The position numbers were made by a program, and so were the translations under genes. Shown piece after piece: positions 20,386-59,355 of a stretch of DNA of 62,336 nucleotides. The stretch comes from an archaeon (GTDB lineage Archaea; SpSt-1190; DYHY01): contig JBBIPP010000002.1 of the NCBI GenBank assembly GCA_037442745.1, forward strand, positions 110,463-172,798. Direction: 5' to 3'. Positions within the stretch are counted from its first letter, which is position 1; each line of letters opens with the position of its first letter. Under the pieces are notes generated by a model, which saw only the letters and a program-made list of their open reading frames with translations, searched no databases and was not told where the DNA came from.

Positions 20386-21090
20386 GGAAAAACCAGCCTC
20401 CAGAAACTTTTCCATTGTCCTGAATCCCAAAGGAACCACTTTTCCCCGTTTACGGGTGTCTCCCATCATTACTGCGCAGAACTTGCTTTGTTTGAGGACA
20501 GAGTAAAATTCTTTTGCAATCATCCCTATTTCTTTTATGAATTCTTCGACTGAAAGAGAGGACAAATCACTTTCATCCTCATCACTATACGAGATGATGT
20601 TCGCATAATGAGGATGGGCACAGACAAAGTCAACGCTTTCCTTTCCGAAATAAGCTACGACTTTCTTGGCGTCCCCGATCTTTAGTACCGGATCGAACGA
20701 ATCCGGAAACTCAAAAGAGCTTCTTGCTTTCGAGAGTTTTATTGCATCTGAGCTTAGGTCAATTCCTATTCCTCTCCTGCCGAGAAGTTTCGCCTCTATT
20801 GCAGTTGTCCCGCTTCCAATGAACGGATCAAGAACAACATCTCCTTTTTTCGAATAGCGGAGTATGAGGTTTCTCGGAATTTCGGGCGCCCAATTCCCGC
20901 GATAATCTCCCTTGTGGGTTGCCCAACTGCCCCTCCTAGGAAAACTCCAATTGGTGGTTGCCTGCATCTTGAATTCATTCGGCTCAGTAGCTAAAGCACT
21001 TTTTTTCTTTTCAAAAGGGCTAGAAACCAATTTATTAGTTTTCAACAAAGGTTTCTCTTTAGATTGTACCAATTTTGTTCCTTCTGCCAT
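20260..21090 (-). CDS. Orphan SAM-dependent N6-adenine/N4-cytosine-type DNA methyltransferase with atypical motif order and an HPHY motif
   Basis: EIPRNLILRYSKKGDVVLDPFIGSGTTAIEAKLLGRRGIGIDL is the motif I / SAM-binding block of N6/N4 methyltransferases. Downstream, VDFVCAHPHY occupies the place of the (D/N/S)PPY catalytic motif. The ORF is intact. Confidence 0.65.
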   Translation of the reverse strand: MAEGTKLVQSKEKPLLKTNKLVSSPFEKKKSALATEPNEFKMQATTNWSFPRRGSWATHKGDYRGNWAPEIPRNLILRYSKKGDVVLDPFIGSGTTAIEAKLLGRRGIGIDLSSDAIKLSKARSSFEFPDSFDPVLKIGDAKKVVAYFGKESVDFVCAHPHYANIISYSDEDESDLSSLSVEEFIKEIGMIAKEFYSVLKQSKFCAVMMGDTRKRGKVVPLGFRTMEKFLEAGFSLKEIIIKEQHNCRATGFWYPQSIKYNFLLLAHEYVFVFEKS

Positions 21091-21186
21091 TTTAGAAGAT
21101 TTCTTTTTTTCTCATTTATACTTGGACACAGTCTTTCCGTTATTAATTTTAGAGAAATTTAAAAGGGGCCTTTTCACTCCGGAAAT

Positions 21187-22017
21187 GTGCCGACTGAGAA
21201 GTTCCAATTGCCAGTTTTCCTCAAATGGGCGGGAGGAAAGCGCCAGCTTCTGCCGGAACTAACGAAGAGGTTTCCCAAAAGTTTTTCAGGTTATGTAGAG
21301 CCTTTCTTGGGCGGGGGAACCGTTTTCTTTCAGGTGAAAAAAGACAGATCACCGAAAAAGGTGTTTCTTTCAGACATAAACGAGTATCTTGTAAATTGTT
21401 TCATCTAAGTAAGGGATTCTCCTGAAAAACTCTCAGATCTTTTGGAAGAACACCGGAAAAACCACTCGAAAGAGCATTATTACAAAGTAAGAGCACTTAA
21501 CGGTGGCCTAGACAAGGCAGAAAGCGCAGCAAGGTTGATTTACCTTAACAAAACCTGTTTCAACGGCCTTTATAGGGTTAATTCCCAAAACGAGTTCAAT
21601 GTCCCGTACGGAAAACACAAGCACCCGGCAATTCCATCTAGAGATTTGATTCTTTCCGCCAGTTATTTCCTCAAAGACGCGAAAATAAAGAAAATGTCTT
21701 TCGATAAGCTCGATTGGATTGCCAAGAATGGCGATTTTGTTTATTTTGACCCTCCTTATTATCCGATGTCAAAAACAGCCAATTTCACGGCATATTCGAC
21801 CGGAGGATTCGCGGAGGAGGATCAAATTAAACTATCTGAGATTTTCAAGAAACTTTCAGAAAGGGGCTGTTTTGTTATGCTCTCAAACAGCGACCATCCC
21901 AAAATAAAGGAAATTTATTCAGAATTCAAAATAGCTTCGGTTCTCGCTAGAAGGTCGATAAATTCCGTTTCCTCTGGTAGGGGCCCAGTAAAAGAACTGA
22001 TAATAACGAACTATTGA
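21187..22017 (+). pseudogene. Dam-like (D12-class) N6-adenine DNA methyltransferase interrupted by an in-frame TAA at 21406-21408
   Basis: The N-terminal part has LKWAGGKRQLLPELTKRFPKSFSGYVEPFLGGGTVFF (motif I). The C-terminal part has VYFDPPY (motif IV). Both parts are in frame 1 and are separated only by the TAA. Confidence 0.7.
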
Positions 22018-22538
22018 CTTTCTTCGGGAAGACCGAAATACTCAAGAGGTATTTCGTTGAAGAAATAACCACACCCAACAGATTTTACATATTCCAAAGT
22101 GTCCTTATATTCCGGCTTTTGGAACCAGTTATTCAGAACATATACATATTTTACCTGCGTTTTCAAGGAAGAGAATAGTTTTTTGTATTGTTTCAGCTTA
22201 AAGTCGCATGTTTGGAGTTTTTCATCAACTGATCTAGGGCTGTGCTGGAACTTCATCTCAACAATATGCACGACATTTCTCCTTAATATGAAAACTGCCT
22301 CGTCCGGAACAAGTTTTTTCGAGAGTATTTTTTTGTAGTCAATTCCTTTAGGAGCAAGGAATCCTTTGTAAAGGACGTGCTTTCAATAAAGTTCCGCAAC
22401 AACTTCTTTGTTGAAAAATATCTTGTTTCCAGAAACAGAATAACCTTTCAGTTTCCTGAATAAATCAGCTATTTTTACCCTATCCTCGAAAAGCAAGCCA
22501 ACCACTGTATTTGCGCCACCAAAACCACCCTTTTTCAT
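22011..22538 (-). pseudogene. PD-(D/E)XK restriction-endonuclease-like gene interrupted by an in-frame TGA at 22383-22385
   Basis: The minus-strand reading gives MKKGGFGGANTVVG...VAELY*KHVLYKGFLAPKGIDYKKILSKKLVPDEAVFILRRNVVHIVEMKFQH.... The PD...(19)...E-M-K arrangement fits a PD-(D/E)XK core. It is convergent with the Dam pseudogene. Confidence 0.5.
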
Positions 22539-22679
22539 AATCCCAAAAATATGATACGCAAATAAAATACCTTGCCTTGATTTTCCTCCAATCTAGCCAA
22601 AATCCCTTGCTTCAATTAGAAAACCCCTAAAATTACCTCCAAATACTTTAAATTCCGGCAACTCTTTCCCTTCCAAGAA

Positions 22680-23849
22680 ATGTTCCAAAAGCCCAAAAAT
22701 TCCCCCCCTTGCCCTAGGAAGAAAATCGAGTCACTGAACCTGTCAGCGAAAAGGGCGTCTGAGGGCTTCTCGCTTCTTTTCCTCGGAAAAACAATCCTTC
22801 TCTCAATATTCTTCGGATATTTCCTCCTCTACCACTCGCTCGGCTTTCCGGCAGGCCTCTCAATTCTCCTGATTTCATTCCCTCTGTTCTCGACAATTCT
22901 TTCCAAATACAGGGAATACCTGAAAATTAGGGAGATTTCCGGATTTTCCCGCCCGGACGAATTCCACACACTTTTCGTTGAAATCGAGCGCCAGAGACTT
23001 TTTTCAAAAATATCGCTTTTCCTTTCGGGCGGGCTCTCCCTAGCGTTCGGGCACATACTTTTTCCGCAATTCATCTCTGGATATCTCGACCTCTTCTCAG
23101 TCGAGGCTTCCGCATCCGCCTTCCTCGTTTTCTCCCTAGTTTTCCTCGGAACATTCATTGTCCCGGCATTCGCAAGATATTCCCTAGCAACGAAGACCAA
23201 AGGGACTGGCAGGCACGAGGAACTAGAAGAGACCCTCGGCCTTGTCGAACTGAAAACGCGGGCGCTCTCCCTTTTCCCGGCAATTTATTTCCTGATTTTC
23301 CTCCTCTTCCTCCTTGGAGGGGACAAAAAAATTCTTGTCTGGTTAATTGCAGTCTCATCACTCTTAATGGCAGGGGCAATAATTTCATTTTACCTGGAGT
23401 CAGAGCTTCTAATAAGAAAAAGACTGGCAAAGGAAGGGGTTCTTCCGGCAAAAGACGAAAGAATTGTGGCTACCTTCTTCGGAATAACCAGTTTGGGAAC
23501 TTATCCGAATTTCCACCTGCCGTTCTCAACTGAGCGGGAGAATTCCCTTCTCCTTACAAACAGGAGGATAGTTTTCCTCAAAATCCCCGGGAACAAAAAG
23601 ACTGCTCCTGAGATTGCGCGGGTTGGGAAGGAAATTGAGAGAAAGGGATTATCCGAACTCTTGAAACTGGGGAAAAATTCCCTTGAATATTTCGAGATTT
23701 CCCGGGCAGAACTCAAGGGAAAAGGGCTTGAGCTAGACATTGAGGCAAAGGACGGGCGGAAATACCGCCACCTTCTCCTAGATAGGGAGGATTCCGGGCG
23801 CCTCAGCGCCCACCTGAAAACGCAGATTTCCCACAAATTCACTGCCTGA
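22680..23849 (+). CDS. Polytopic membrane protein with a C-terminal bacterial-PH-like (YdbS/YdbT-type) domain
   Basis: Six or more TM helices are followed by LLLTNRRIVFLKIPGNKKT...LEYFEISRAELKGKGLELDIEAKDGRKYRHLLLD, a bPH-like pattern. GC content matches the host. Confidence 0.45.
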   Translation: MFQKPKNSPPCPRKKIESLNLSAKRASEGFSLLFLGKTILLSIFFGYFLLYHSLGFPAGLSILLISFPLFSTILSKYREYLKIREISGFSRPDEFHTLFVEIERQRLFSKISLFLSGGLSLAFGHILFPQFISGYLDLFSVEASASAFLVFSLVFLGTFIVPAFARYSLATKTKGTGRHEELEETLGLVELKTRALSLFPAIYFLIFLLFLLGGDKKILVWLIAVSSLLMAGAIISFYLESELLIRKRLAKEGVLPAKDERIVATFFGITSLGTYPNFHLPFSTERENSLLLTNRRIVFLKIPGNKKTAPEIARVGKEIERKGLSELLKLGKNSLEYFEISRAELKGKGLELDIEAKDGRKYRHLLLDREDSGRLSAHLKTQISHKFTA

Positions 23850-23913
23850 ACTTGCTGATTTTCCCTAGTTGAAAACTCTTAAAAAGGCTGGAACCCGCGG
23901 ATATTTCCGAAAA

Positions 23914-24351
23914 ATGGCAAAAAAACCGAAAGGCCTATTCGCAGCAGCAAAGCTCACAAAGAGAAGGAAGAAATTCCGGCTCTCCCAGAAGGGTTTCAGG
24001 CAGGTATTCTACGGAACGCGCCTCAAAGCAGACCCCCTGAAAAAGGCGCCACAGGCAAAGGGAATTGTCCTAGAAAAAGTCGGAGTTGAAGCGAAACAGC
24101 CCCACTCCGGAATCAGGAAGTGCGTCCGGGTACAGCTTTTGAAGAACGGAAAGCAGATTACAGCAATGACCCCGGGCGACAAGGCAATAACTTTCATTGA
24201 CGAGCACGACGAAGTCGAAGTCGAGGGAATCGGAGGGGCAATGGGCCGCGCAATGGGAGATATTCCGGGAGTGCGCTGGATTGTCACAAAGGTCAACGGA
24301 ATCGCGGTCCTCGAGCTCAGACGCGGAAAGAAGGAGAAGAAGAGGCGCTAG
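23914..24351 (+). CDS. rps12: 30S ribosomal protein S12
   Basis: [22 protein letters not shown]...[13 protein letters not shown]...VTKVNG. The start is set at ATG 23914 to give the usual 145-aa archaeal length. Confidence 0.85.
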
Positions 24352-25036: not shown

Positions 25037-25402
25037 CCTAGCCCCTGCCATGTTCCGAATGGCATTCGGGAAGCTTCTTACAACAATTGCATCCAAAATA
25101 AGCTCTCAATCCGGGAAATACTGAAACCGGCGAAAGCGCTTGAGAAAACCGGGATGAGAATGCGCTATTTCAACATCTGAGATCCTAACAAGTTCGATTT
25201 CAACACGCCAATTCACCGGAGAACCTCCCAGAAAAAGGAGATTTAGGACGCTTTCAATTCCCTGAAGAAATACATTGAAAAGTTCAGATAATTCCCCTAC
25301 TCAAAAAAGGACTGCCGGAAAAAAGTTGACTGGACAATTATGTGCATTTTTCTCCAAAGAGCATATAACCAAAAATGTTTTACTATTGCAGAGAGGGGAA
25401 GA

Positions 25403-26671
25403 ATGCGAATGTCTTCTAGCAGAAAAGGGGAAATAAGGATATTTTACTCGTTTTCCGGGGAGAAAAACGAGGGGTTCCTTCCAAAGGAGCTTCTTCATCC
25501 AGACAAGGACGCGTGCTTCCAAGGCAATTACACTGGAAAGGGGATAGGGAAGCTTGAAGATGTTTTCCTCCCAATTGAGCTCCAAATATACAGGGAGGAT
25601 TCCGAAGAGACTGATTTTTCCGGGGAAGTTTCCTTAGACTTCCTAAATCCATTGGGCTCGGAAGAGCTCTTCCTCCGGCTCTCCGAAGGACGGACAATCC
25701 CTGAGAAAAACCTCAGGGAATATTTCGAGACAAGGCTCAGGAGGGCAGTCAAGAGGAATGTGTCGAAGACTACCAACTTTTTCTTGGACATTCGATATGG
25801 GAACTTGGAAACGGTTTCAATTACGACAAATTTCTCAGGAGTCTCTCAAGGACAAATCCCAAATCTTGTGACAAGCCTTCTTGACGAATATACTTTAATT
25901 GTCGGGGACGTTTCAGCTTCCCTCGGAGTTGCCCCGAAAAGCAGGACAATTCACATTGTCTTCAAGAAGACCGACTATTTCGGCAAGACTTCAGTTGAGC
26001 CGGCCGACCTTGAGACCGAGAGCGCGATCGGGGAGACGAGGAAACTGCCTCCGGGGAATTCAGGAGACAAAAAATGGAAAGGGTCGAACCAGATATTCCC
26101 CCACCTTCCATTCGAGGCAATTGCGCTCTCTGGCCTTTCGGAAGAAATTGACGAGACATATCCGAGGGATGAGACTTTCTATATAGGACCTGTCCTTGAG
26201 GCGGAATATTCCCTTTCGGGGACGAATTCCCCGAGAGTTTCTGTTTCAGACACGTCCGGCTGGATGGACGTTCCAGTGAAGAAAATATCACTGGTCGGAC
26301 GGCCTTCCGCCGGAGGCTATTCAATTGACGCCAGTTTCGAGCTTTCCGCGAATCTTGACAAACATTGTGTCCAAAGACTCCGGAACAGGATGGACGATTG
26401 CGGAATAAAGTATTCCCAAGCCGGGCGGGAATTCTCCATTGTCGGATATTCCGCAAATTCAAAGGAATCTGCAAAGGAAGAGCTTTTCAGGGCAGCGGTT
26501 GACATGAAGACCGCGCTATCAGAGCTTTTCCCCCGAGAAGAGGGGCGTTTCTGGTTCGTTCCTGTCGGAATCCCCCTCGACAGGGGAAATCTCGGAAAGG
26601 AGATTGAAAGTGTCCTCTCCGGAAGGGCGGACTATGCCTGGAATATGAAAAGGAGCGCGAGAGGTAAATGA
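25403..26671 (+). CDS. Protein with no family recognisable from sequence (423 aa), first gene of a coupled pair inserted in the str operon
   Basis: The start is chosen at MRMSSS (25403), which has GAGGGG 7 nt upstream and a TATA-like CATATAAC about 35 bp upstream. No known motifs were recognised. Confidence 0.5.
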   Translation: MRMSSSRKGEIRIFYSFSGEKNEGFLPKELLHPDKDACFQGNYTGKGIGKLEDVFLPIELQIYREDSEETDFSGEVSLDFLNPLGSEELFLRLSEGRTIPEKNLREYFETRLRRAVKRNVSKTTNFFLDIRYGNLETVSITTNFSGVSQGQIPNLVTSLLDEYTLIVGDVSASLGVAPKSRTIHIVFKKTDYFGKTSVEPADLETESAIGETRKLPPGNSGDKKWKGSNQIFPHLPFEAIALSGLSEEIDETYPRDETFYIGPVLEAEYSLSGTNSPRVSVSDTSGWMDVPVKKISLVGRPSAGGYSIDASFELSANLDKHCVQRLRNRMDDCGIKYSQAGREFSIVGYSANSKESAKEELFRAAVDMKTALSELFPREEGRFWFVPVGIPLDRGNLGKEIESVLSGRADYAWNMKRSARGK

Positions 26672-27768
26672 CCGCAAGAGTGAATGTATTTTTCCCGGAG
26701 AGATTGGAGGAAATCGCGAGAACTGCGCTGGAGACCGGAAAAAAGCAGGAATATCTCGCGCCCGAAGGGCGGGTTCTAGAGAGCTTCAAATTGGACGTCT
26801 CCTGCAAAGTCCCGGATGGAAAAGGAAAAGACGCTGTATATACGGGAAAAGTCGGGATCGCCTTCCCAGACACATTCGACCCCGACAAGGTTTCGGGATA
26901 TTATCTTCAGATGGCAATGGAAGCAGTCCCCCAGATTCTCGGGAGAGATCTGAATAAATCGAAGGAGGGTTTCGAATCCTGCGAGGACGGCTCTTTCCTT
27001 TATTCCAAATACTGCTTCGCTTCAGACAATGAAGCCGAGTTTGCGGAATTCGCAAGGAAGCTTGTCAGGACATATTCCATCATTTGCGAGGAAATTCTCA
27101 AGGACGCCGGGTTTGACGGAAAAATTAACCTGAATTTTTCAAAGAAAAAGGATGCTTCTTCCGGAACCACCTCTCTTCCTGCGCCCAAATCCGAAAGAAA
27201 GAATTCAAAAGTCCTCCACCCTCCCCGCATTGTCCCCTTTGCAATCTACAGCTCGTCTGAAATTGAGAGGAGCCTTTCTTCAGGGGAACCGATGCACTTT
27301 TTCCTCGGAACTCCCACCCTCTACGAGATTGACCCTGTCAGGAACTGCGCGAAAGAGGTTTCCTTCGGCTGGAAGCTCCTCGATTCGAAAGTCAACGCAA
27401 GCCTCTCAATTTTCCCCGGAAAATGCGGAATGTATTCGGAGGAAATTTCTCTCTCGTTTCCTGACGGAGATTGCCCGGAAATTTTCAGGAACGAATACGA
27501 GGAGCTCGGCTATTCGGCCGTTGCAAATGGTAACCGGTTAATTCTGAAAAGAGATTCCCTCTTTCCGGTTGATGCGAAAGGGGTTGCCAAAGGAATTGCC
27601 GACTCTGCACTCAAAATAGCCTCAACAGTTTCCAATTTCTCAGTTCCCCAGGAAAGGGAAGGGCTTTATCTCGCCCTCCCGATTGCCGACTATCAGCCGG
27701 AGAAGCACATTCTCAGGGGGGCTGTTGCAGATTTCGTGCAAAAAGGAAAGGCATACGGTCTTGAATAG
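26668..27768 (+). CDS. Protein with no family recognisable from sequence (366 aa), second gene of the coupled pair
   Basis: ATGA overlap with the upstream gene. No recognisable motifs, TM segments or signal peptide. Confidence 0.5.
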   Translation: MTARVNVFFPERLEEIARTALETGKKQEYLAPEGRVLESFKLDVSCKVPDGKGKDAVYTGKVGIAFPDTFDPDKVSGYYLQMAMEAVPQILGRDLNKSKEGFESCEDGSFLYSKYCFASDNEAEFAEFARKLVRTYSIICEEILKDAGFDGKINLNFSKKKDASSGTTSLPAPKSERKNSKVLHPPRIVPFAIYSSSEIERSLSSGEPMHFFLGTPTLYEIDPVRNCAKEVSFGWKLLDSKVNASLSIFPGKCGMYSEEISLSFPDGDCPEIFRNEYEELGYSAVANGNRLILKRDSLFPVDAKGVAKGIADSALKIASTVSNFSVPQEREGLYLALPIADYQPEKHILRGAVADFVQKGKAYGLE

Positions 27769-42285: not shown

Positions 42286-42639
42286 ATGGCTGATTTCTCA
42301 ACCGAACTGCTAAAGGACCCTGTTTTCATAATAACAATTGCAATACTTCTCGTATATGCGTGGGGCTTGAAGGGCTTGGCGGAGAATATCCTGAAAAGAA
42401 TAACAGTGTCCGAGCGCTATCTTGTCCTCTCGAAGAAAGAGACATTTCTAATAACGCTCGCGTTCGCATTCTCATCAATATATATCGGCCTCGTGATGAT
42501 AGGAATTTACGAGGCAATCTCGGGGCTTATCCGCCCGACAGGTGCCCTGCGATACATTTCCCTCGGGTTCTTCGGTCTTGGAGCAATCCTTATTGTCCTT
42601 GGCGCCAAATGGGGAAAAGAGCTCCGGGAATTGTTCTAG
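42286..42639 (+). CDS. Small membrane protein (hypothetical)
   Basis: Three hydrophobic helices. Confidence 0.4.
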   Translation: MADFSTELLKDPVFIITIAILLVYAWGLKGLAENILKRITVSERYLVLSKKETFLITLAFAFSSIYIGLVMIGIYEAISGLIRPTGALRYISLGFFGLGAILIVLGAKWGKELRELF

Positions 42640-43610
42640 AAAACCTCCTTGATTTCGGCAGAGTCGACAATCCCGTCTCCGTTCAGGTCAATTCCTTCGA
42701 CAACAAGTCCCGATTTAGCGGAGCGCACGCGCTCCCCCATTAAAAGAAGGGCTAGGAGGGCTGAGCGGGTTCCCGAGAACCTTTTTCCGGCAACAACGAC
42801 AATCTCCTTTTCAGGGCTCCAGGGGTTCTTCGTCCTTGCGACAATTCCACAGTCCTCCTCCGAATAATACTTTCCGCTCCGTTCAGACAGTATGTCCCAA
42901 TTGTGCTCCCTCTCGAAGCGAACGGGAAGACTCTCGTTCACAAGCCCAACAAGCATGTTCGTTATCGGGCCCCCCAATAGGACCAGGTTCTCTTTCCTTT
43001 CGCTCTCCCGTAGCTCGGTGTCTGTTCGCACAATAGGCCTTCCGATTGACGCGAACCCGGAGATTACCGAAGCCATTTCCCCCGAATAATGCCCGTCCCT
43101 TGCCCGCGCCCTGTTCGGGCCGTGGGAATCGGGAGAGCCGACAACAAGGAGACCGTCGAAATCCCCCTCCTTTCCAACAAAGCCCTCAAACATTTCAGGG
43201 ACATTCCTCGCACCGCCCTTTGACTTGAGAGCGAGCGCGAAATCCTTTCCCCCGGGAAGCTTCACAGCAAACGCAGTTCCTGTGACGCTGAAATAGTTCG
43301 CAATCCCCCCGCGTCGCTCCTCCCGTTTTTCCACCTTCACAAACCCCCCTGCCCTTAGAGCCCGCATGTGATAGAAGACCTTTTGCTCGGGGATTCTCAG
43401 TTTCTCCGCTAGCTTTGTCGGATAAGAGGGCTCCTTTGAGAGCTCAGAGAGAATCTGCATTCTCATTGGATTCAGAAGATAATGGAATTTCTCCTCCGAG
43501 ACAAGAACACCCTTCCTTGCGAGGTATTTTCCGCGATCCTCTTCTACCACCAACACCATTTCAATACCCTTTGTGTCAAATTTATAATACTTGTTGAAAG
43601 AACTGTACAA
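42636..43610 (-). CDS. ArsR-type HTH domain protein with a C-terminal domain of unknown function
   Basis: PMRMQILSELSKEPSYPTKLAEKLRIPEQKVFYHMRALRAGGFV is an ArsR/SmtB-like wHTH. The true start may be the internal ATG at 43559. Confidence 0.5.
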   Translation of the reverse strand: MYSSFNKYYKFDTKGIEMVLVVEEDRGKYLARKGVLVSEEKFHYLLNPMRMQILSELSKEPSYPTKLAEKLRIPEQKVFYHMRALRAGGFVKVEKREERRGGIANYFSVTGTAFAVKLPGGKDFALALKSKGGARNVPEMFEGFVGKEGDFDGLLVVGSPDSHGPNRARARDGHYSGEMASVISGFASIGRPIVRTDTELRESERKENLVLLGGPITNMLVGLVNESLPVRFEREHNWDILSERSGKYYSEEDCGIVARTKNPWSPEKEIVVVAGKRFSGTRSALLALLLMGERVRSAKSGLVVEGIDLNGDGIVDSAEIKEVF

Positions 43611-46189: not shown

Positions 46190-46287
46190 ATACTCTTTGC
46201 AAGTTTATTAAAGTTTCCAACGGATTGGTTTTTGTTACTATTCAGTAATCGGTCTTTGTTATATAGAAAAGAGTCCCTTTAGTAAGC

Positions 46288-48843
46288 ATGGGCAGGGGAA
46301 ATGGCAGTTTCGCAGTTTTATCGGAAAAGCCGGATATGCAGATAGGGATTGTGGGTCCGACCGGAGTTGGCTCGGTATACTATGCCCCCGGGACTTTTGA
46401 CCGCATTGCCAGCTATTTCGGAGAGGTGGCTCCCGATGCCGACGCAATTGTAATGTCCGGTCTCGTTGCGCAAGTTCCAAGCGAACATACCAAAAGGCTA
46501 ACTGCCAGAGCACTTGAACCAAATGTCGACGTTGTTGATGACATTTCCGCCGACTTTGGCGCGGAATTAGGGGGCTTTTCACAATATCTTGGAGTTCCAA
46601 AGAACGGGGAAGATGAGCCTGCAAGAAAGCCGAAAAAATCAGACGTTATTCCGGTCTATTACGCGCTTGACCCGAACGATTTTCGGAACATTTACGAAAT
46701 TGCCAACTGCAAATTCAACCAGTTAAAGCAGATCCAGAACACCGAAAAGGAGAAACGCCACCGCCTTGAAAAGGGAAGGGAAGCCTGCCTTGCAATAAGC
46801 ATGGCTCTCCAGATGCAAACTGAGGTTGCAGAAGAGCTAAAGGCGCTCCTAGCGTCAGACGCCGAAAAATATGCTCAGGAATTGGCTGAAATAGAGTCGA
46901 GAGCGAGGCGTGCTGGAAGGGCACTCGAAAATTACCGCGAAAGGATAGAGAACATAACGATGGCAATTGCCGAGATAAAAAAGAAGCTCAAGAATTCCCC
47001 TGCCGGAAAGGCGGAGGAATTGGAGGAGAAGATTGAAGGAGCCCTCAAGAAAATAAAGAAATCAAAGACCGAAATCGCAAAACAACAGGCTCGCCTCGAG
47101 AAATTGAAGGGAACTGATGCGGAAGGTTTGGTGGAAGCCCTCACAACATATGACAACATTTCCGCGACAATTGCCGCAATAACAACTGAAGAGGCGAGAG
47201 CGGTAAAGGAACTCAGTTCAGCTGACAAGAAGCTGGAAGAACTGACTGACAGCATGACTGGCTTCAAGCAGGCAATAGAATATTTCACAAAGAGAGCGCG
47301 GGCGCTCCCGTCAGTCCAGCAGGATGTTGACGACGAATCGGTCATACATTATAAAAAGCTTCTCGAGGACCTCCTCGAGATAAAGATAAAGCTGGTCACG
47401 TCTTCTGAGACTGTAAAAATAGGGAAAAAGAACGTCAATATTGCCGGAAGGCGGGCTAGCGCACTATCAAGCCAGAGCGCGACTGCAGGCGACCTTGCCG
47501 CAAGCGTCAATTATGCAAGGGTCAAGCTCCAGGAAGGAACGCCCCAGGCGGACTTTTACATTACTGTTGCTCCCGGAACAAGCAACCTTGCGATTACAAC
47601 CGACATGAACACTGCCGAACGAGAGCCAATCTACCACTTCAAGGCGCCCAAGGCAATGAAAAAGGACGGCATTAAGGCGGCCGCAAAGAAGCTTGTCAGG
47701 TCGCTTGAAACCGATGCGGCATCTGGGAGATATCCTTATACTGACGGAGTAAGCGTTCTTGAGGGATACCGCGATGGAAGCGTTGTAGTGAGATACGCTT
47801 CCCTTGAAAGCATTGAAGGGAAAAAGGAAAAGTTCGGAAAAGCGGTAAGGGTCCTGAACCTGACAGATACCCACCTTAACTCATCGACGCCTATTGGAAT
47901 TGACACTCCCGAGACACTCCTTGACGCTGTCGAGAAATTCACACTAAAATACTGCAAAGACGCAAGGAATGCGGGAGACGTTGTTGTGATAAATGTCGGA
48001 GGGGACCTTGCTCAGTGGGGGCACTACCCGACCGCGCCAACCGAAGGGTGGAGGGCAACCGAGGCCGAGAAGAAGAAGCTCGATCGGGCATACCGTGACA
48101 GTGCAGTGACAAAGGAGGATGTCCTCAACTCGATTGCTAAACTGGACGGAGCCCTTGGTGAGAAAAACATGACTGTTCAGGAAGCGAACATCCAAGCGCG
48201 CTTCGGCCGGCTGATGAACGCAGTCCTAAGGAACCCGAACGTCACGGTTTTCATTGCCGGAGGGAACCACAGCCTCCACAAAGACCCTGACAGGACTGAA
48301 GCCCAGTTCCTATACGAGGGTATTGATGAAAAGCTACGCTACAGGGCTTTCCACGAGGAACAAATCGGAGCGCCATCGGAAGTTGTCGGAGCTCTAGGTC
48401 TCATAAAACCAGACGAGCCCGAAATTTTCAGGCGGGGCACTGACGGGGCATACGTCCTGAGAGTGAACGAAGGAGGGGCGTCTAGGGACATACCTTTCTG
48501 GTCAAGCCACTACAACAGTCCAAGTCCCACCGCAGTCGAGTCTTCAATTGCTAGGGCAGTGAATGAAAATAGAGCCGTCCTATTCACCGCAAGGGGGGAT
48601 ATGCATGTCGGGGGAGCGGCAGTTGCCGGAAAAGCCCTTCACTTGGCGGGCCTTGCGCTTCAGCCAAGGAACGACTATACTGACACAAAGTCACTAGGGG
48701 AATCAATGCGCGGAATACAGGCGGCGACAATCTACGGGGAGGGGTGCTATGACATTGCGTTCGTTCCGGAAAAGGCCCTCCTTGGCTCTGTGAAAAGCTA
48801 TGCGCAAAGGGAAGTGCATTCAATAGCAAGGCTGAACGCCTAG
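46288..48843 (+). CDS. Large (851 aa) protein with no family recognisable from sequence. It has an N-terminal domain, a ~300-aa coiled-coil and a C-terminal calcineurin-like metallophosphoesterase-like domain.
   Basis: The coiled-coil region is rich in E/K/A heptads (aa ~170-470). C-terminal motifs appear in phosphoesterase order: LNLTDTHL (DxH), VINVGGDLAQWGH (GD), FIAGGNHSLHKD (GNH), GDMHVGG. Confidence 0.5.
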   Translation: MGRGNGSFAVLSEKPDMQIGIVGPTGVGSVYYAPGTFDRIASYFGEVAPDADAIVMSGLVAQVPSEHTKRLTARALEPNVDVVDDISADFGAELGGFSQYLGVPKNGEDEPARKPKKSDVIPVYYALDPNDFRNIYEIANCKFNQLKQIQNTEKEKRHRLEKGREACLAISMALQMQTEVAEELKALLASDAEKYAQELAEIESRARRAGRALENYRERIENITMAIAEIKKKLKNSPAGKAEELEEKIEGALKKIKKSKTEIAKQQARLEKLKGTDAEGLVEALTTYDNISATIAAITTEEARAVKELSSADKKLEELTDSMTGFKQAIEYFTKRARALPSVQQDVDDESVIHYKKLLEDLLEIKIKLVTSSETVKIGKKNVNIAGRRASALSSQSATAGDLAASVNYARVKLQEGTPQADFYITVAPGTSNLAITTDMNTAEREPIYHFKAPKAMKKDGIKAAAKKLVRSLETDAASGRYPYTDGVSVLEGYRDGSVVVRYASLESIEGKKEKFGKAVRVLNLTDTHLNSSTPIGIDTPETLLDAVEKFTLKYCKDARNAGDVVVINVGGDLAQWGHYPTAPTEGWRATEAEKKKLDRAYRDSAVTKEDVLNSIAKLDGALGEKNMTVQEANIQARFGRLMNAVLRNPNVTVFIAGGNHSLHKDPDRTEAQFLYEGIDEKLRYRAFHEEQIGAPSEVVGALGLIKPDEPEIFRRGTDGAYVLRVNEGGASRDIPFWSSHYNSPSPTAVESSIARAVNENRAVLFTARGDMHVGGAAVAGKALHLAGLALQPRNDYTDTKSLGESMRGIQAATIYGEGCYDIAFVPEKALLGSVKSYAQREVHSIARLNA

Positions 48844-48878
48844 GGCAGTTAAATGGAGGGTTTCTCCCACTCTCACTT

Positions 48879-49901
48879 TCAATTACTGCCCGAAAATTTC
48901 CTTCCTATTGGTGCCGTTTCCATGTCAACCTCTTCAGAGGTGGGTGTTGTCGAGACAATTGAGACTCTGTATTTCCCGGAGAGCTTCTTTGCGAGGGATT
49001 TTGGGAACTCGACCCTTTTTTTCTTTTTGTTATGGAACTGGAGATCTTTTGGAATTTCAGGAACAGCTTTTCTTCCTTCAATAACCGCCTTCACAAGGAG
49101 GCCGTCCGAATCAATTTCCTCGAAACTTTTCCTGATTCTCCCGGCAGTCCGAAGGAACCTCTTCCTTATCTGGACTGCGTCCTTTGTCCTGCTAGAGCAG
49201 TAGTGGACAGGCATTCCGGGAGTGTTTTCCTTCGCCCAGGAAACTATTTTCAACGCGAATTCCTCGCTTCCCCTGACAGCATAACTTTCCCTGTTTTTTA
49301 TCTTGAATCCACTTTTCCTGAATGCCTCAAAGTTCTGCTCGCTCCAATCGAGCTCGTTCAAGTTGCAGAACCCGGCATTGTTTTTATGGAGGAATTCCAA
49401 ATAATCAGTTGTCGCCTTCCAGTTCCCCGGAATTGCAGGAATTTCCCCTCCAACAACCCAGGGCAATTTCAGAGCATCAAGAATCTCATTTTTGTTGAAA
49501 TGAAACCTTATTTCGTCAACTCCCGCGCGAAAGAGCTTTTTGAACTTGTCGGGCGTTCCCAGTTCCCCTGTTGTATAGAGGTGGATATGGAAAGATTTTC
49601 CGAACCTCCTTTTCAGGGCGCGGACATATTCGATTGTCCGCGAGAGCCGGTAGAGCGGGTCCCCCCCAGTCACTCCAGCCCCCTTTGCTCCCATTCTCTC
49701 CGCCTCGAAAAGAAGATCTTTTGTCCCAATTATCCGCCTCTCGTTCGCAAACGGAGAATCAACCATTTTCCTTCTCTGAGAAATCGGGCAATAGAAGCAC
49801 TTCATTTTGCAGATTCCCGTAGCGAATACGACAATTTTCTCGCCCTTTAGGCACTGGACGCAGCCTTTCGGAAGGGGGCCTGTTGTCGCATCCTTGTACA
49901 T
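48879..49901 (-). CDS. Radical SAM enzyme (PflA/AmmeMemo-like activase family)
   Basis: GICKMKCFYCPIS carries the CxxxCxxC cluster motif. The size of ~340 aa is typical. Confidence 0.7.
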   Translation of the reverse strand: MYKDATTGPLPKGCVQCLKGEKIVVFATGICKMKCFYCPISQRRKMVDSPFANERRIIGTKDLLFEAERMGAKGAGVTGGDPLYRLSRTIEYVRALKRRFGKSFHIHLYTTGELGTPDKFKKLFRAGVDEIRFHFNKNEILDALKLPWVVGGEIPAIPGNWKATTDYLEFLHKNNAGFCNLNELDWSEQNFEAFRKSGFKIKNRESYAVRGSEEFALKIVSWAKENTPGMPVHYCSSRTKDAVQIRKRFLRTAGRIRKSFEEIDSDGLLVKAVIEGRKAVPEIPKDLQFHNKKKKRVEFPKSLAKKLSGKYRVSIVSTTPTSEEVDMETAPIGRKFSGSN

Positions 49902-49942: not shown

Positions 49943-51076
49943 CTAGCTGTAAAAATTCTTCCTGTGCTCGAGCATTGCAAGGACCGCATGCCGGTTATTG
50001 TCAACCCTTTTTATCTGGGTTTCGAACGAATTCCCGAAGCCTCCAAGAACATTTTCCGCAAGTCCATTTTCAATTCTTTCGGGTTCAAAATATTGGAGGG
50101 ATTTTAAAAATTCAATTGACGAGAACAGGACTTTTTTGTATCGGGCAACTCTGGCCGAGTCTCCCATTTCCTTTGCAAGGAAATATGCGTCTTCCATCCA
50201 TTCAATATAGACTGCGGTAGAAATTCCACCTGGAACCGAGAACGCGCCAGTTGTTAGGTTTTCCTTGATTTCCGAAAGATAGTAACCCATTTCAAAGACA
50301 ACTTCTTAATAGTCTTTCCGCGGTTCAACGCGGTAAAGGAGAGCGTATGCCTGGATACGCCTGTGTGTAAATGCAATTGATTTGTTTACCTCCAATAGTC
50401 CCTGTAATAAAGTCCCTTCCTGACTGAGTCAAGACATCTGGGATCGCCAGTTTCCTGATGGAGGGAAACAAGGGAAAGAAGGGATTCGCCCGGATAATAA
50501 TTGCTCCCTTTTCTATTCCGTTCTCCTCGAAAAGTGTCCTGAACGCTCAATCCTCCCTCTGCCTTTCAAGGAGGCCGTCTCCCACCAGAATTAAGGTGAT
50601 GTTTCTTTCAGGGAAATCATCAGCTTCGACGATGGAAAGAATAATGAAAGCGGAATGCGCAATCTTCCCGTCTGGAACCGGAACATAGGAGATATTTCTC
50701 GACGGAAGGTAGATTATGCCTTTCCTGAAAAAAGAAAAGCCTTTTTGAAAAAGCCCATTCAGGCGCAAATCCCCAGTTTCCCCATACGACTTGGATATTG
50801 CCCAGATGGTTGCAAGCTTCCTGACTTTATTGTCCTCGTGAGAACAACACCCCGCTCAGGATGGTAAGAGTAATGGATGAAATCCGAGTTTTCATTCCTC
50901 AGGAACCATTCAATTCCTTCGGAAATTGACCCGTTAAGAGTTATCTCCTATTTAGCTTCCAAACAGGCGGAGCACAAGCGTCCTTTTTCGGAATTCGCCT
51001 GATTGAAAAAGAGAGGCAAATCAAGGACTGCCAAGGCTGCCGCAAGAATAATCAGTAATCCAGAGAACTTTTCTTT
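49943..51076 (-). pseudogene. Probable frameshifted remnant of a secreted protein gene
   Basis: A signal-peptide mini-ORF (MKEKFSGLLIILAAALAVLDL..., 50945-51076) and downstream coding-like fragments in changing frames are present, including ORF 49943..50290. No ORF >73 aa lies between 50291 and 50944. Confidence 0.3.
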
Positions 51077-51272
51077 CATTTTATTACCTTGTATGCGCAG
51101 ACTTCCTAGCATATTTCGGCGGAGACATCAAGCAGTTCCTCTTTGAATGGGAATAGCCGGAAAAATACACACCAATTTTTCTTTTCGCTCAATTGCCGTC
51201 AAAGTCGGCTGAAAGAAGCCTCTCGTGCCTGCCCGCGGGAATCTCAATCGAGGTAGCATACCCGATATAGGG

Positions 51273-51590
51273 CTAACCCTTGTCAGTATTCGCCTTAATC
51301 AAATGGCTCGCTTCAGCCGGCCAGTGCCTTCCAACAACAAGGGTATTTTTTTCAAGAAGCTCTTTCGGGAAATGGCCCTCGTATTTCCAGCCTTCGAGCG
51401 CATTCTCAGGCAGAGCTATTGATATTCCTGTGACCTCTCCTACAACTCCAACGGATTTTTTCTTTCCAATTGCCCGGATAGTTATTTCCCCATTGGAAAC
51501 TTCTATTCCTCCCGTGATGAGGTTATTGTATTCCGAAATCCCATCCTTTTCGGGAAAATTAATTCTATGGCGAGCATGGTCTGAAACCAA
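51273..51590 (-). CDS. Hypothetical protein (105 aa)
   Basis: ORF only. Confidence 0.35.
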   Translation of the reverse strand: MVSDHARHRINFPEKDGISEYNNLITGGIEVSNGEITIRAIGKKKSVGVVGEVTGISIALPENALEGWKYEGHFPKELLEKNTLVVGRHWPAEASHLIKANTDKG

Positions 51591-51682
51591 TCAAATCGCG
51601 CTCGTTGACTCGAGCCCTTCAAGATATTAATATGTCTTTTCAATTTATTTTCCAATATCTTCTTATCTTGGAATTAAGAAAA

Positions 51683-52018
51683 CTACCTCCCGAGCCTTAT
51701 TATTATTGAGGAAACGTTGAACCTTTCCTTCCGCTCGTTCTCGACAGTCTCAGTCCCAATTTCTATTGAATTGACCTTGATGTCCGAGAGGAAGCGGTTC
51801 CTGACAATCTCGGCGACATCGACTGCAACCGAGATTGCCCGCCCCCTAGCTTTGAGAACAACCTCAGAGCTTCCGTTGTGGAACTGGGTAATTGCTGCCA
51901 TTACATAGTTCATTGGCGGGCGGTTCCCAATGAAAATAGTGCTGTCCGTTCCTTGATGTGTTTGTTGGTGCCCCTGTGGGTGCCTCTGTTGGTTGGTCTG
52001 TCTGTCTCCGTCTGACAT
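51683..52018 (-). CDS. alba: Alba (Sso10b-like) DNA/RNA-binding chromatin protein with a Q/H-rich N-terminal extension
   Basis: TIFIGNRPPMNYVMAAITQFHNGSSEVVLKARGRAISVAVDVAEIVRNRF matches the Alba core. It is preceded by MSDGDRQTNQQRHPQGHQQTHQG. Confidence 0.75.
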   Translation of the reverse strand: MSDGDRQTNQQRHPQGHQQTHQGTDSTIFIGNRPPMNYVMAAITQFHNGSSEVVLKARGRAISVAVDVAEIVRNRFLSDIKVNSIEIGTETVENERKERFNVSSIIIRLGR

Positions 52019-56177: not shown

Positions 56178-57353
56178 ATGGTGTTGGAGAAGGGATATGT
56201 GTTTTCACATTCCCATCAGATTTCTAAACGAAGAAAGGGCGCTGCCCTGACAGGGGAGATGATTTCCCTAATAATTGTCTCAATACTCCTTGTTGCGGCA
56301 ATTGGGGGAATTGCCTCCGAAATAGCCTTTCTTGCAACAACCGCACATTTCCTCGAAGCCAAAATAATTGCAGGAGCAGTTGCCGGAGCTCTCACATCAG
56401 TCTCCTCCGCCCCCCAGAACGGGGTCTATTGCATCACTCTTCCGGGAACCTTCCAATACAAGGTCGCTTTCGGAATTGGGACTGAAAAGGCATCAGTCGG
56501 ACCCGCCCTTGTCGATCCTCCGGAACTGGGAGAATATTGCCCGGTAACCCCCCCGAGCTATTCTGCATACGAAAAATACCTGACAGGGCCCTACAAGGAG
56601 TTCTTCGATTCGGCTTCCGAGAAGTATGCTGTCCCGCTTCCTTATATTCTTGCAATTGCATATACTGAATCGGGAATTGAGCACTATGACACTTCCGGGA
56701 ATGTGAAGGATTCGGGCTCTGGGTATATCGGGATAATGATGGTATCAGACGACAACCCGGAAAACCGCGAGCCGGAAGGGAACATTAATTCCGGAGTTGC
56801 CGAGCTACGAAACAAGCTCGACTATTTCGGAGGCGACTTTCAGGCGGCAGCCGCGGCATATAGCGGGGGGACTGCCGGGGCTGTCGAATATATCAGAGCT
56901 CTCGGAGGGGCGGGTTCCTGGGTCAAAAACCTCCAGGCCGCGGAATTCATGGAACTTGAAATTTACGAGGACATAAACCCCCTTCTAGCCAATCTGCATT
57001 TCCCGGACGGCTCAGAATATACAGTAGAAAAGCAGAACGCATGCGGAGTCGCAAGGAACACTGCGAACGCGCGCTTCTTCGAGTCAATGGGCCTTGGGAC
57101 AGCAAAGTACGGGTTCGTTGCAGTTGTCCGGGAAACCGACAAATCCGGGGCTATCTCATATGTACCTGTCACAACATTCGAGCCCGGCGTTTTCAAAATA
57201 CCGTCCGGCGGGAAATACACTCTTGTGATGAAAAAGTCACTCTTCAGAATGCCCCATGGCGGATATAAGGAGGCAATACGGTTCGCTGTCCGGGAAGGGG
57301 GACTTCGGGAAGCCGGGTGCCAGGCCGAGACTCCGGCAATCTGCGGGTTTTAG
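56178..57353 (+). CDS. Membrane-anchored lytic transglycosylase (SLT-domain, lysozyme-like) protein
   Basis: After a TM anchor (LIIVSILLVAAIGGIA) comes YILAIAYTESGIEHYDTSGNVKDSGSGYIGIMMV...AAYSGG, which fits the SLT E-S...S-x-G-x-x-G-h-M-Q...AYN-G pattern. Confidence 0.55.
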   Translation: MVLEKGYVFSHSHQISKRRKGAALTGEMISLIIVSILLVAAIGGIASEIAFLATTAHFLEAKIIAGAVAGALTSVSSAPQNGVYCITLPGTFQYKVAFGIGTEKASVGPALVDPPELGEYCPVTPPSYSAYEKYLTGPYKEFFDSASEKYAVPLPYILAIAYTESGIEHYDTSGNVKDSGSGYIGIMMVSDDNPENREPEGNINSGVAELRNKLDYFGGDFQAAAAAYSGGTAGAVEYIRALGGAGSWVKNLQAAEFMELEIYEDINPLLANLHFPDGSEYTVEKQNACGVARNTANARFFESMGLGTAKYGFVAVVRETDKSGAISYVPVTTFEPGVFKIPSGGKYTLVMKKSLFRMPHGGYKEAIRFAVREGGLREAGCQAETPAICGF

Positions 57354-57370
57354 GAGGAGTGAGAAAGGGA

Positions 57371-58624
57371 ATGACTGAAAGGAAAATGAAAGGGAGGAAA
57401 GCGCAGCAGCCCTCAATCCTTCTTCTCGCCCTGATTTTCCTCGTCACCTTGGTGGGGCTTGCGGTAATAGTCCTCCTTGCGAACGCAGACCTTCTCTCAA
57501 CAATTGAGCGGCATAACGAGAACAGGATGGCAATACTCGTTGCAACAAGGATAACTGGCGCTCCCAATTTCGTTATGGACACAGGATACTTGGGCCTCCA
57601 CAAGAACGTCCTTGACACAAGGCGCCTTGACATTTATTCCAAGAGCTTCATGCGCTCGCTCTCCAACTATGCGAATTCCGGGGGCGCGACAAACCTCCTT
57701 CCCCAAACTCCCTATGAGCTCAGGTCAAGCTGCTATTCCTGGATTGCCGTTATCCGCAACCCTCAGGAGGACAGGCTCTGGGTTTTTGGAGAGTATGAAA
57801 TTCTCCAAGAGCCCCTGAAAACGGAAATAAGGGAAGCAGCCCTCGATGCATATGCAAGTAAGCGGAACTATTATGCCGGAGCGGGCTCGACATCCTATTC
57901 CCGGGCACAGCAAATGAACACAATGTTAGAATCAATGGGCGGATACACAATCCCTGTCACAATTGCTCTCTACGAAGGGGACCAGATAAAGAAGTTCGAC
58001 CTTGGAACGCTCCAGGTTTTCGTCAGAAAGACCCCTGCCTGCACTGACTCGGACAAGCAAGAGGAGGAGTATATAAAGGCAATGACATTGGTTGAGAAAT
58101 ACTATGATTTTCCGCAGGTGTCCCGCTCATTCAGGAACACCCCCCTCCCCCACATTCCGAGATTCGACCATTCAGGAGGAGCAGGGAGATATTTGAGATG
58201 CGAGGAACTTCCAATAGAGGAGATTTCAAAACACTTCACTTTCGAGGAGGCTGAGCTTGTGGCCGGAATGACTTCATTGACTGAGAGAATTGAATCCGCA
58301 GGCGAGGCTTCCGGAGTTGACCAGAATTTCCTCCGGGCAGTGCTCTTCCATGAGACTGGCCTTGATCCGGAAATTCTCGCATACACTGACATCGAAGCAA
58401 TGGCAGGTTCAATCAGGCAGGAAGCGGACTATTTCGCGGACAAGGTCTCTGCATCCCAATGCGCTCCCAATTATGTCGCAATATCGAGGCTTGTTGGGCC
58501 GACAGAGACTGATGAATACATTACCGGGACATTGGCTCCCCTTCCGGAGACAAGAAGGTCGGCCGAACGAATTATTTATTATTATACTGCGTTTTCGTCC
58601 TGCTTTGGAGTTGAGGGAAGATGA
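57371..58624 (+). CDS. Membrane-anchored extracytoplasmic protein of unknown function
   Basis: The start is MTERKMKGRK, preceded by GGAGG. It has a TM helix (ILLLALIFLVTLVGLAVIVLLA). The segment NFLRAVLFHETGLDPEILAYTD is a weak lysozyme-like hint. Confidence 0.45.
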   Translation: MTERKMKGRKAQQPSILLLALIFLVTLVGLAVIVLLANADLLSTIERHNENRMAILVATRITGAPNFVMDTGYLGLHKNVLDTRRLDIYSKSFMRSLSNYANSGGATNLLPQTPYELRSSCYSWIAVIRNPQEDRLWVFGEYEILQEPLKTEIREAALDAYASKRNYYAGAGSTSYSRAQQMNTMLESMGGYTIPVTIALYEGDQIKKFDLGTLQVFVRKTPACTDSDKQEEEYIKAMTLVEKYYDFPQVSRSFRNTPLPHIPRFDHSGGAGRYLRCEELPIEEISKHFTFEEAELVAGMTSLTERIESAGEASGVDQNFLRAVLFHETGLDPEILAYTDIEAMAGSIRQEADYFADKVSASQCAPNYVAISRLVGPTETDEYITGTLAPLPETRRSAERIIYYYTAFSSCFGVEGR

Positions 58625-59355
58625 AACTCGTGAGAAACACGGCAGGTTGCCGGAGCCGAAAATCGCTTGTTGCAGGAACCCTTCTTGTAGTTCTCCTGAC
58701 CGCAATACTAATTGGAGGAGGGATTTTCCTCCTTGTTTCGACCCGCCTAAAAGTACAACTCAACATTCTTGAGGAATTGGCCGAGCGCGATCAAAAGCCG
58801 ACTCTTCAGGCTCTCTCATATTCGACTGTCGGGTTCATGCAGAACAGTCCGATTTCGTTCTATGATCTTGTCTCGCTTTCAGCAGTCCTAGGAAGGGACG
58901 ACTATATTCTCGGGGGGAACCAAGTATCTGCTGAGGAGACTGTTGACAGGCAGATTGACTATTTCTCGGAAACAAGCCTCGCAGCATATCCAATTTCCTG
59001 CTTTGACTATGCGCTCTCCGGGGAAGACGGAACAATAATTTTCAACAGAGTAATATCGTCCGGAACGCTTCCCGCCGAGACCGAATCCTGCGACGAGATT
59101 GTGGCAAAGCTGGGTGATGCGGGACTGGTTGCAACAGCGAAAAGGGGATATTCTTATCTTATACCTCTTCCTCCTTTCAAGAGCGGTTCAGCTAGGCTAA
59201 CTGCCCAGTTCATATACGATTTGGAGGCTTCTGAAGGCGCGTCAAAAATCCCTGACTCTGAGAGGCCCTTCTGCAAGGAGGAAGGAGTTGAAGCGGGAGT
59301 TGCTGAAGAGTGCTGTAGCGGAAGAATTGAGAAAGGGAGGTGCACAAGGGGATGA
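58621..59355 (+). CDS. Membrane-anchored extracytoplasmic protein of unknown function
   Basis: ATGA overlap with the upstream gene. TM helix (LVAGTLLVVLLTAILIGGGIFLLV). Cys-rich C-terminus. Confidence 0.4.
   Translation: MKLVRNTAGCRSRKSLVAGTLLVVLLTAILIGGGIFLLVSTRLKVQLNILEELAERDQKPTLQALSYSTVGFMQNSPISFYDLVSLSAVLGRDDYILGGNQVSAEETVDRQIDYFSETSLAAYPISCFDYALSGEDGTIIFNRVISSGTLPAETESCDEIVAKLGDAGLVATAKRGYSYLIPLPPFKSGSARLTAQFIYDLEASEGASKIPDSERPFCKEEGVEAGVAEECCSGRIEKGRCTRG

Follow-up and report, generated by a model that had tools for sequence, protein, structure and literature searches.

An archaeal protein that combines a coiled coil with a predicted, divergent metallophosphoesterase domain

The 851-codon gene and its relatives

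Here, we describe a gene for a protein of 851 amino acids (aa) that lies in a 62,336-nt stretch of an archaeal genome (contig JBBIPP010000002.1), the whole of which is referred to as the window. The window is archaeal chromosome, with split rpoB''/rpoB' and rpoA'/rpoA'' genes and genes for a NusA-like KH protein, S12, S7, aEF-2, aEF-1alpha and Alba. The open reading frame (ORF) starts with ATG and occupies positions 46288..48843 of the plus strand, stop codon included; its GC content is like that of the surrounding chromosome. An initial annotation, made by reading the letters before any database search, had described the product as a member of an unknown family in which a long coiled coil precedes phosphoesterase-like motifs. 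The ORF and the strings quoted at that stage are present as given: GIVGPTGVGSVYYAPGTFDRIASYF is located at aa 20-44, and the phosphoesterase motifs follow one another in the canonical order, with DTH at 527-529, GDLAQWGH at 572-579, GGNHSLH at 658-664 and GDMHVGG at 770-776. No hydrophobic segment was found in the 851-aa protein, and for this reason it is taken to be soluble. The features of the locus are collected in Table 1.

The family proved to be extremely rare. In 5.8 billion clusters, a word-index search with the full-length protein found nothing beyond the identical protein and one orthologue with 89% identity. When the same index was queried with aa 421-851 it missed even the identical protein, so its negatives for fragments were not trusted and an exhaustive phmmer search (aa 397-851 against 1.84 billion representatives) was used instead; this search found only the cluster of the ~90% orthologue (P0002) and one distant protein, P0004. 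A search with a profile of three sequences added no further members, and automatically made patterns had no match in genome contigs (GTDB species representatives) or metagenome contigs. A hand-made DNA pattern, running from motif V to the family signature SMRGI, detected one more ~89% orthologue (L002) in the JGI metagenome Ga0116204, which a paper identifies as Lake Kivu, an anoxic lake. The same pattern found no match in IMG/VR viral contigs, tblastn found none in phage and plasmid collections, and searches of PDB sequences, for which the single protein, the profile of the family and P0004 served as queries, returned nothing relevant. In the literature searched there was no described family that matches the protein. 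The family comprises one shallow lineage (the window protein, L001/P0002, L002 and L004/P0003) plus P0004. About four sequences are present in the collections searched; as the initial annotation had supposed, the family has neither a name nor a literature.

P0004 is a singleton of 751 aa, encoded on a 2.5-kb ENA contig without neighbour genes. It shares 25% identity with the window protein (phmmer E 5e-5 in the 1.84-billion search), and BLASTP aligned window aa 245-810 to its aa 176-720 with an E-value of 3e-17. Smith-Waterman scores, set against those of shuffled sequences, gave z values of 17 for the middle lobe, 12 for the C-terminal domain and 1.6 (not significant) for the N-terminal lobes. 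These alignments indicate that the two proteins are homologous. P0004 has the same architecture, including a coiled-coil stretch that is shorter than in the window protein, and SMRGI is invariant in all family members.

In a comparison with the L001 orthologue (89% identity), the ratio of nonsynonymous to synonymous substitution rates (dN/dS) was 0.07, with dS of about 1.06 and zero indels across 851 codons. The ratios of the separate domains were alike (0.05-0.09). Such a substitution pattern indicates a functional gene under strong purifying selection. The longest runs of invariant residues relative to this orthologue take in motifs III, IV and V, and aa 14-68, which are also unchanged, form one of the two longest. 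Upstream of the gene there is a block that is identical in the two genomes (Table 1), and judged by the position of its TATA-like box it would act as the gene's own promoter. This box stands before the ATG at a spacing typical of leaderless transcripts in archaea, which implies a leaderless or near-leaderless transcript. The palindrome beside this box is possibly an operator for some regulator.

Table 1. Features of the 851-codon gene, its upstream region and the neighbouring radical SAM gene (positions in the window)
Feature	Residues	Position	Strand	Remarks
Upstream block, putative promoter/operator		46230..46271	+	42 nt 100% identical between window and L001; coding DNA 81% identical
Palindrome TTACT-ATTC-AGTAA (TTACT-N4-AGTAA)		46235-46248	+	inside the 42-nt block, just upstream of the TATA-like box
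TATA-like box TTATATA		46259-46265	+	centred 26 nt before the ATG
N-terminal lobe	1-128	46288..46671	+	no Pfam match; similarity to N lobe of P0004 not significant
Walker-A-like IGIVGPTGVGS, then FDRIASYFGE	19-29 (first string)	46342-46374	+	without the Walker A Lys
Coiled-coil region	129-360	46672..47367	+	delimited by AF2 helices (pLDDT 50-73), heptad score and Pro/Gly positions
Putative hairpin apex LKNSPAGK	234-241	46987-47010	+	between ascending helix 129-234 and descending helices 239-338
Middle beta-rich lobe	361-504	47368..47799	+	basic (pI 9.5); similar to P0004 aa 296-443 (Smith-Waterman z 17)
C-terminal metallophosphoesterase-like domain	505-851	47800..48840	+	
Motif I LNLTDTHLNS	D527, H529	47854..47883	+	P0004 D470, H472; aligned to SbcD SDWHLG
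Motif II NVGGDLAQWGH	G572, D573	47992..48024	+	GD invariant, P0004 D508; aligned to SbcD AGDV/I
Family-specific helical insert, motifs II-III	580-650	48025..48237	+	three helices in AF2
Motif III FIAGGNHSLH	N660, H661	48250..48279	+	P0004 SGQHYN (Q599, H600); in a 33-aa run invariant relative to the orthologue
Motif IV candidate IPFWSSHYNSP	H741	48490..48522	+	P0004 LFAIHAP (H651); in a 36-aa invariant run
Motif V variant TARGDMHVGG	D771, H773	48586..48615	+	GDxH invariant in P0004 (D681, H683); in the longest invariant run, aa 764-819
Family signature SMRGI	806-810	48703..48717	+	32 residues beyond motif V, spacing fixed; part of the DNA pattern by which L002 was detected
Radical SAM gene		48879..49901	-	PF04055 45.9 bits, E 8.9e-12; C31-x3-C35-x2-C38 (CKMKCFYC, aa 31-38)

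The C-terminal domain

There is good reason to regard the C-terminal domain as a divergent calcineurin-like metallophosphoesterase (MPE), and the first line of evidence leads through P0004. Residues 464-527 of this homologue match the Pfam family PF00149 with 28.3 bits (E 2.9e-6), above the gathering cut-off of 21.5 bits, and P0004 also matches PF12850 (E 8e-4) and the model phrog_1649, 'metallo-phosphoesterase' (E 1.7e-5). The initial annotation had made its phosphoesterase assignment depend on the conservation of the motif residues in homologues, and most of the candidate ligands are indeed kept in P0004: D527, H529, G572, D573, G770, D771 and H773 are the same in both proteins, which share 25% identity, and H661 is conserved as well, while N660 is replaced by Q. 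By transitive homology and motif conservation, the domain very probably belongs to the MPE superfamily, as a divergent member.

The second line of evidence comes from profile-profile comparison by hhalign. As references we used SbcD and SbcC sequences from six real pairs, one of E. coli K-12 and five of plasmids. The family profile of the C-terminal domain matched the six-sequence SbcD profile with P 8.5e-5 and a probability of 60%, and motifs I and II were in register. The two motifs were aligned at the very N terminus of SbcD, the match ending at template column 68. The score was 39.6, about 10 standard deviations above the shuffle mean, and none of 200 column-shuffled queries scored above 22.5.

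Structure models were built with AlphaFold2 (AF2), from 2 sequences for the full-length protein and from 3 sequences for the C-terminal domain, and both are of low confidence. MPE folds headed both structure searches. All of the top 10 PDB matches returned by Foldseek for the C-terminal model were MPE folds, at values that are not significant and with a model whose predicted local distance difference test (pLDDT) score is 45. The first of them was 6knb_A, the small subunit DP1 of archaeal PolD (E 0.019), and seven of the ten were LpxH entries (E 0.05-0.15). The phosphoesterase-like domain proposed at the outset is thus supported: homology to MPEs extends over motifs I and II, through PF00149 in P0004 and the in-register alignment with SbcD, and most of the proposed ligands are conserved. 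For the remainder of the domain, of which the models are of low confidence, an MPE fold is what we infer.

The spacers between the motifs had been noted as longer than in Mre11/SbcD. This is correct for motifs II and III, which are separated by 87 aa in the window protein and by 91 aa in P0004; the corresponding spacing is about 35 aa in Mre11 of P. furiosus. In the AF2 model of the C-terminal domain the helices of the insert lie at aa 592-602, 609-622 and 628-647, and the full-length model is similar. Alignment of the motif IV candidate to P0004 is ambiguous, with a 29-aa insertion in the window protein. The 78 residues after motif V (aa 774-851) could accommodate one helix and the last strands of an MPE.

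The coiled-coil module and readings of the whole protein

The region ahead of the C-terminal domain contains the coiled coil. Its heptad-rich, helical character is real, with a length of about 230 aa (~129-360) instead of the ~300 aa given in the initial annotation. The predicted helices 129-234, 239-274, 277-338 and 349-363 are the sole parts of the full-length AF2 model with pLDDT of 50-73, and a heptad score based on a/d occupancy peaks in 28-residue segments starting at ~169 to ~323, with a dip at the Pro238/Gly240 break. Two arms of roughly 100 residues probably form an antiparallel hairpin, a geometry that is suggested by their equal lengths. In a hairpin of this kind the N lobe (1-128) and the middle lobe (361-504) would lie side by side, which is the topology of SMC/Rad50 heads. 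The apex contains no Cys or CxxC, so there is no Zn hook, and there is no hinge domain. Matches of the coiled coil to SMC, Rad50, LmuB and JetC models were restricted to the arm regions of these models and had low scores.

The N lobe had been described initially as not being a P-loop. When tested against the Walker A consensus GxxxxGK[ST], aa 23-29 read GPTGVGS and contain no Lys, in agreement with this description. However, the same segment is weakly aligned, in register, with the Walker A region of SbcC. The N lobe of the window lineage matched the SbcC N lobe in hhalign with P 0.002, a value that is borderline after correction because about 16 such comparisons were made, and 1 of 300 shuffles reached the score. 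In this alignment 'QIGIVGPTGVGS...FDRIASYFGE' is in register with SbcC 'LFAITGPTGAGKS...LDAI..ALYGE': GPTGVGS falls on the Walker A sequence GPTGAGK[ST], and FDRIASYFGE on the next helix of SbcC, LDAI..ALYGE. In view of this alignment, the parts that flank the coiled coil may represent a decayed head of the Rad50/SbcC type.

For the middle lobe no family match was found, and its hhalign comparison with the C lobe of SbcC gave P 0.35-0.42, which is not significant. Its candidate positions for the signature and Walker B motifs read LSSQS (393-397) and FYITVA (423-428), not LSGG[QE] and hhhhDE. Neither the Walker A Lys nor the Walker B acids nor a signature motif is present, and no head-domain model was matched; ATPase activity is therefore unlikely, and the early remark that the protein contains no functional ABC ATPase was right. 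Nor did the ORFs that were scanned in the 62-kb window include an ABC/SMC gene. The N and middle lobes were also considered as a second, degenerate MPE that had arisen by internal duplication, and this was rejected: hhalign and Smith-Waterman comparisons with the C-terminal domain and with SbcD stayed at background, and Pfam gave no match for the spliced N and middle sequences.

Taken together, the protein might be an enzyme, soluble and located in the cytoplasm, of an archaeal family with very few members; as a phosphodiesterase it would act on nucleic-acid ends with a non-catalytic scaffold and no ATP. We put this complete statement forward tentatively and hold it at somewhat less than an even chance. 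Its catalytic part would be the C-terminal ~330 residues, a two-metal MPE of the calcineurin-like/Mre11 type. The proposed ligands are D527 and H529 of motif I, D573 of motif II, N660 of motif III, H741 of motif IV, and D771 and H773 of motif V; H661 would be the catalytic histidine, and the ~70-residue helical insert between motifs II and III would form a cap. The enzyme would be fused behind a non-catalytic SMC/Rad50-like module, in which the N lobe and the beta-rich lobe are joined by the helical hairpin. Head and arm may serve to place the enzyme on a polymeric substrate, for which nucleic-acid ends are the most probable candidate, or to dimerise it there. The MPE site would then hydrolyse phosphodiester bonds in an Mn2+/Mg2+-dependent manner, with no ATP-driven gating of the kind used by Mre11-Rad50. 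Both the substrate and the function in the cell are proposals; a role as a nuclease or in repair is suggested by the architecture.

Several observations weigh against this proposal. The window protein itself stays below the Pfam threshold, as its aa 515-851 match PF00149 with 16.6 bits only (E 0.011); the match covers profile positions 2-104, which by our reading span motifs I to III. Motif III is GNH in the window protein and GQH in P0004, and neither GGNHS nor SGQHY has the acidic residue that follows His in G-N-H-[DE]. Motif V reads GDxH, not the canonical GHxH, in both lineages, with Asp in place of the first His. As there is a single distant homologue, conservation rests on two lineages. 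The family-profile search of PDB sequences gave no match, an Mre11-type capping domain does not fit into the 78 residues after motif V, and neither a Rad50/SbcC, HerA or NurA partner nor any other repair gene was found nearby. Finally, no feature of the protein points to a substrate.

A somewhat less likely alternative is that the protein is a single-chain, ATPase-dead descendant of Rad50/SbcC-Mre11/SbcD, an ATP-independent 'mini-MR' in which a decayed ABC head and coil are fused N-terminally to an intact two-metal nuclease. As in SMC/Rad50, the coiled coil does separate two lobes (about 130 and 145 aa), and the C-terminal partner domain has its best match, over motifs I and II, in SbcD. The Walker-A-like segment, which falls in one of the two longest invariant runs, was aligned not only with the SbcC profile: five of the six single SbcC sequences gave P 0.0009-0.047, and ParA, a DEAD helicase, EF-1a (EF-1alpha) and EF-2 gave P > 0.2. 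A low-stringency alignment, itself not significant, puts R389-x3-LSSQ on R-x3-LSGGE, FYITVAPGT on FIDEGFGT and H450 on the H-loop His. However, the protein lacks the Walker A Lys as well as Walker B Asp-Glu and an LSGGQ/E signature, its middle lobe is not significantly similar to the SbcC C lobe, and no Pfam or NCBIfam head domain was matched even at an E-value of 10. Moreover, the N lobe of P0004 contains no P-loop-like segment and is not significantly similar to that of the window protein, and the apex, devoid of Cys, offers no Zn hook.

The surroundings of the gene bear on a further possibility, namely that of an envelope or glycan phosphoesterase (an LpxH-like pyrophosphatase, or an enzyme of nucleotide-sugar or polyprenyl-linked intermediates) for which the coiled coil serves as a scaffold. 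The gene directly follows glmS and a PAP2 (undecaprenyl-diphosphatase-like) phosphatase gene on the same strand and is near genes for two GT2 glycosyltransferases and a HAD hydrolase, an order that is kept in L001 and L004; LpxH structures, as mentioned, make up most of the top Foldseek matches. On the other hand, a 98-bp gap separates the gene from that for PAP2, the conserved block upstream would provide a promoter of its own, and synteny observed solely among ~90% identical genomes carries no weight. No membrane segment is present in the protein, and the Foldseek matches are not significant and were obtained with a low-confidence model. We consider this explanation rather improbable.

A function in defence, raised by the initial annotation, is more doubtful still. 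The protein would then be an anti-virus effector resembling components of Lamassu (LmuB) or Wadjet (JetC), its nuclease being joined to a coiled coil that acts as sensor or scaffold, and the PADLOC models of LmuB (E 3e-5) and JetC are indeed matched by a protein whose family is, like many defence genes, patchy and extremely rare. However, all PADLOC matches (LmuB, JetC, PbeC, DruC) reach at most 21 bits and are confined to the coiled coil, aa ~140-417, there is neither an adjacent partner gene nor a defence island (the neighbours being glmS, PAP2, glycosyltransferases and Alba), and the GC content is chromosome-like. The searches of phage and plasmid collections by tblastn were empty, and very strong purifying selection without indels is atypical of fast-evolving defence genes. 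Least probable, by a little, is that we are dealing with chance motifs or a pseudo-enzyme domain in a structural coiled-coil protein, as the sub-threshold Pfam score, the non-canonical motif V and the poor structure models would allow, but P0004 scores above the Pfam threshold, the majority of the candidate ligands, which sit in the most constrained segments, persist at 25% identity, and the hhalign score against SbcD lies far above the shuffles.

Were the C-terminal domain an active nuclease, tethered to an arm that is Rad50-like and ATPase-dead, the protein would offer a natural experiment on what coil and head contribute to MR/SbcCD machines without ATP hydrolysis, and a compact single-chain scaffold on which this contribution could be studied. 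Roughly four sequences are known among the billions searched, yet they are under tight purifying selection. The extreme rarity and the lack of functional context limit the general importance of the family.

Genomic setting and comparison with known systems

Downstream of the 851-codon gene are the radical SAM gene and a broken gene, both treated below, as well as genes for Alba, a HAD hydrolase and two GT2 glycosyltransferases. The radical SAM gene is real and convergent with the 851-codon gene, as had been annotated, with 35 bp between them. It matches the generic PF04055 only, and its hits to NCBIfam subfamilies are far below their cut-offs. A functional tie between the two genes, for which conservation of the neighbourhood was to be consulted, is unsupported: being convergent they are not co-transcribed, and their adjacency is uninformative because it was found only in genomes that are about 90% identical.

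The broken gene (49946-50938, minus strand) corresponds to a signal-peptide protein that is intact in L002 (1945-3084, 379 aa) and measures 365 aa in L001; in the window it is split into four pieces in three frames. With at least three frameshifts it would be a pseudogene, unless the breaks are due to errors of assembly. The next gene, of 199 aa in L002, aligns at 51129-51674, where only a 105-aa ORF is open in the window. The Alba protein (51683-52018, minus strand) has an N-terminal His/Gln-rich extension (MSDGDRQTNQQRHPQGHQQTHQG), which in L002 is a longer HPQG repeat.

Some observations were made elsewhere in the window. A patch of low GC content (0.40-0.44 vs ~0.49 elsewhere) at 19735-23849 interrupts the conserved cluster of RNA polymerase and ribosomal-protein genes, between the NusA-like gene (18785-19258) and rpsL/S12 (23869-24351). 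It contains a type II DNA methyltransferase of the N6/N4 class (20260-21090, minus strand), a D12-class type II methyltransferase that covers Pfam profile positions 81-253 only (21442-22017, plus strand), and ORFs without assignment at 19735-20385 and 22680-23849; the patch looks like a restriction-modification island inserted in a core operon. The genes rpsG/S7 and aEF-2 are usually adjacent. In the window two overlapping ORFs of 443 and 366 aa (25340-27768) lie between them, with no match in Pfam or PADLOC. Matches to tRNA at 7988-8154 (167 nt) and 10885-10993 (109 nt) are long enough to contain introns, and both were missed by ARAGORN, which in turn reported a tRNA-Pro at 5667-5744 that has no Rfam confirmation. 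The gene at 42636-43610 (minus strand) encodes an unusual fusion of an ArsR/HTH_20 DNA-binding domain (aa 45-94) with a domain that matches the Methanococcales-type S-layer outer domain (PF05124, E 5.7e-8; TIGR01564, 23.2 bits, just under the 25-bit cut-off). At 56178-59355 a lytic-transglycosylase (SLT, PF01464) protein, encoded in an archaeal genome, is followed by two ORFs without family match, and this arrangement is conserved in L001 and L004.

Comparison with known systems starts from the proteins that headed the structure search. Archaeal PolD DP1 and bacterial LpxH share with the C-terminal domain the top Foldseek ranks, non-significant and obtained at the low pLDDT given above, whereas there is no sequence similarity to them, and the inserts and partners differ. 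The Rad50/SbcC/SMC proteins are alike in that two lobes are parted by a long, probably antiparallel coiled coil, and in the Walker-A-like GPTGVGS with the helix that follows it. Unlike them, the window protein is devoid of the Walker A Lys, the Walker B acids, the signature, a Zn hook or hinge and a significant match of the C lobe, and its arms, of about 100 residues each, are much shorter than those of Rad50/SbcC.

Mre11/SbcD gave the best profile-profile match obtained, with the 'D-x-H-L/V' and 'G-D' contexts in register. The spacings between motifs III and IV and between IV and V are similar, and in both cases the phosphoesterase is tied to a long coiled coil. However, the alignment covers motifs I and II only, motif V differs, and no Rad50/SbcC gene is adjacent; the window protein also has no Rad50-binding helix-loop-helix and no capping domain, the latter because of the short segment that remains after motif V.

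With the MPE superfamily as a whole (PF00149/PF12850) the window protein shares the canonical order of five motifs, of which motif IV is a candidate, and the D-x-H and G-D are retained; G-N-H is kept in the window protein itself, with Gln for Asn in P0004. It departs from the superfamily in the GDxH form of motif V, in the ~70-aa helical insert between motifs II and III and in the fused coiled-coil module of ~500 aa. To our knowledge, such a fusion does not occur in any described MPE subfamily, and a coiled-coil hairpin together with a capped MPE in one chain was not described in the libraries or the literature searched. On a conservative reading, the protein would represent a new MPE architecture, in which a coiled-coil hairpin module is joined to a capped MPE.

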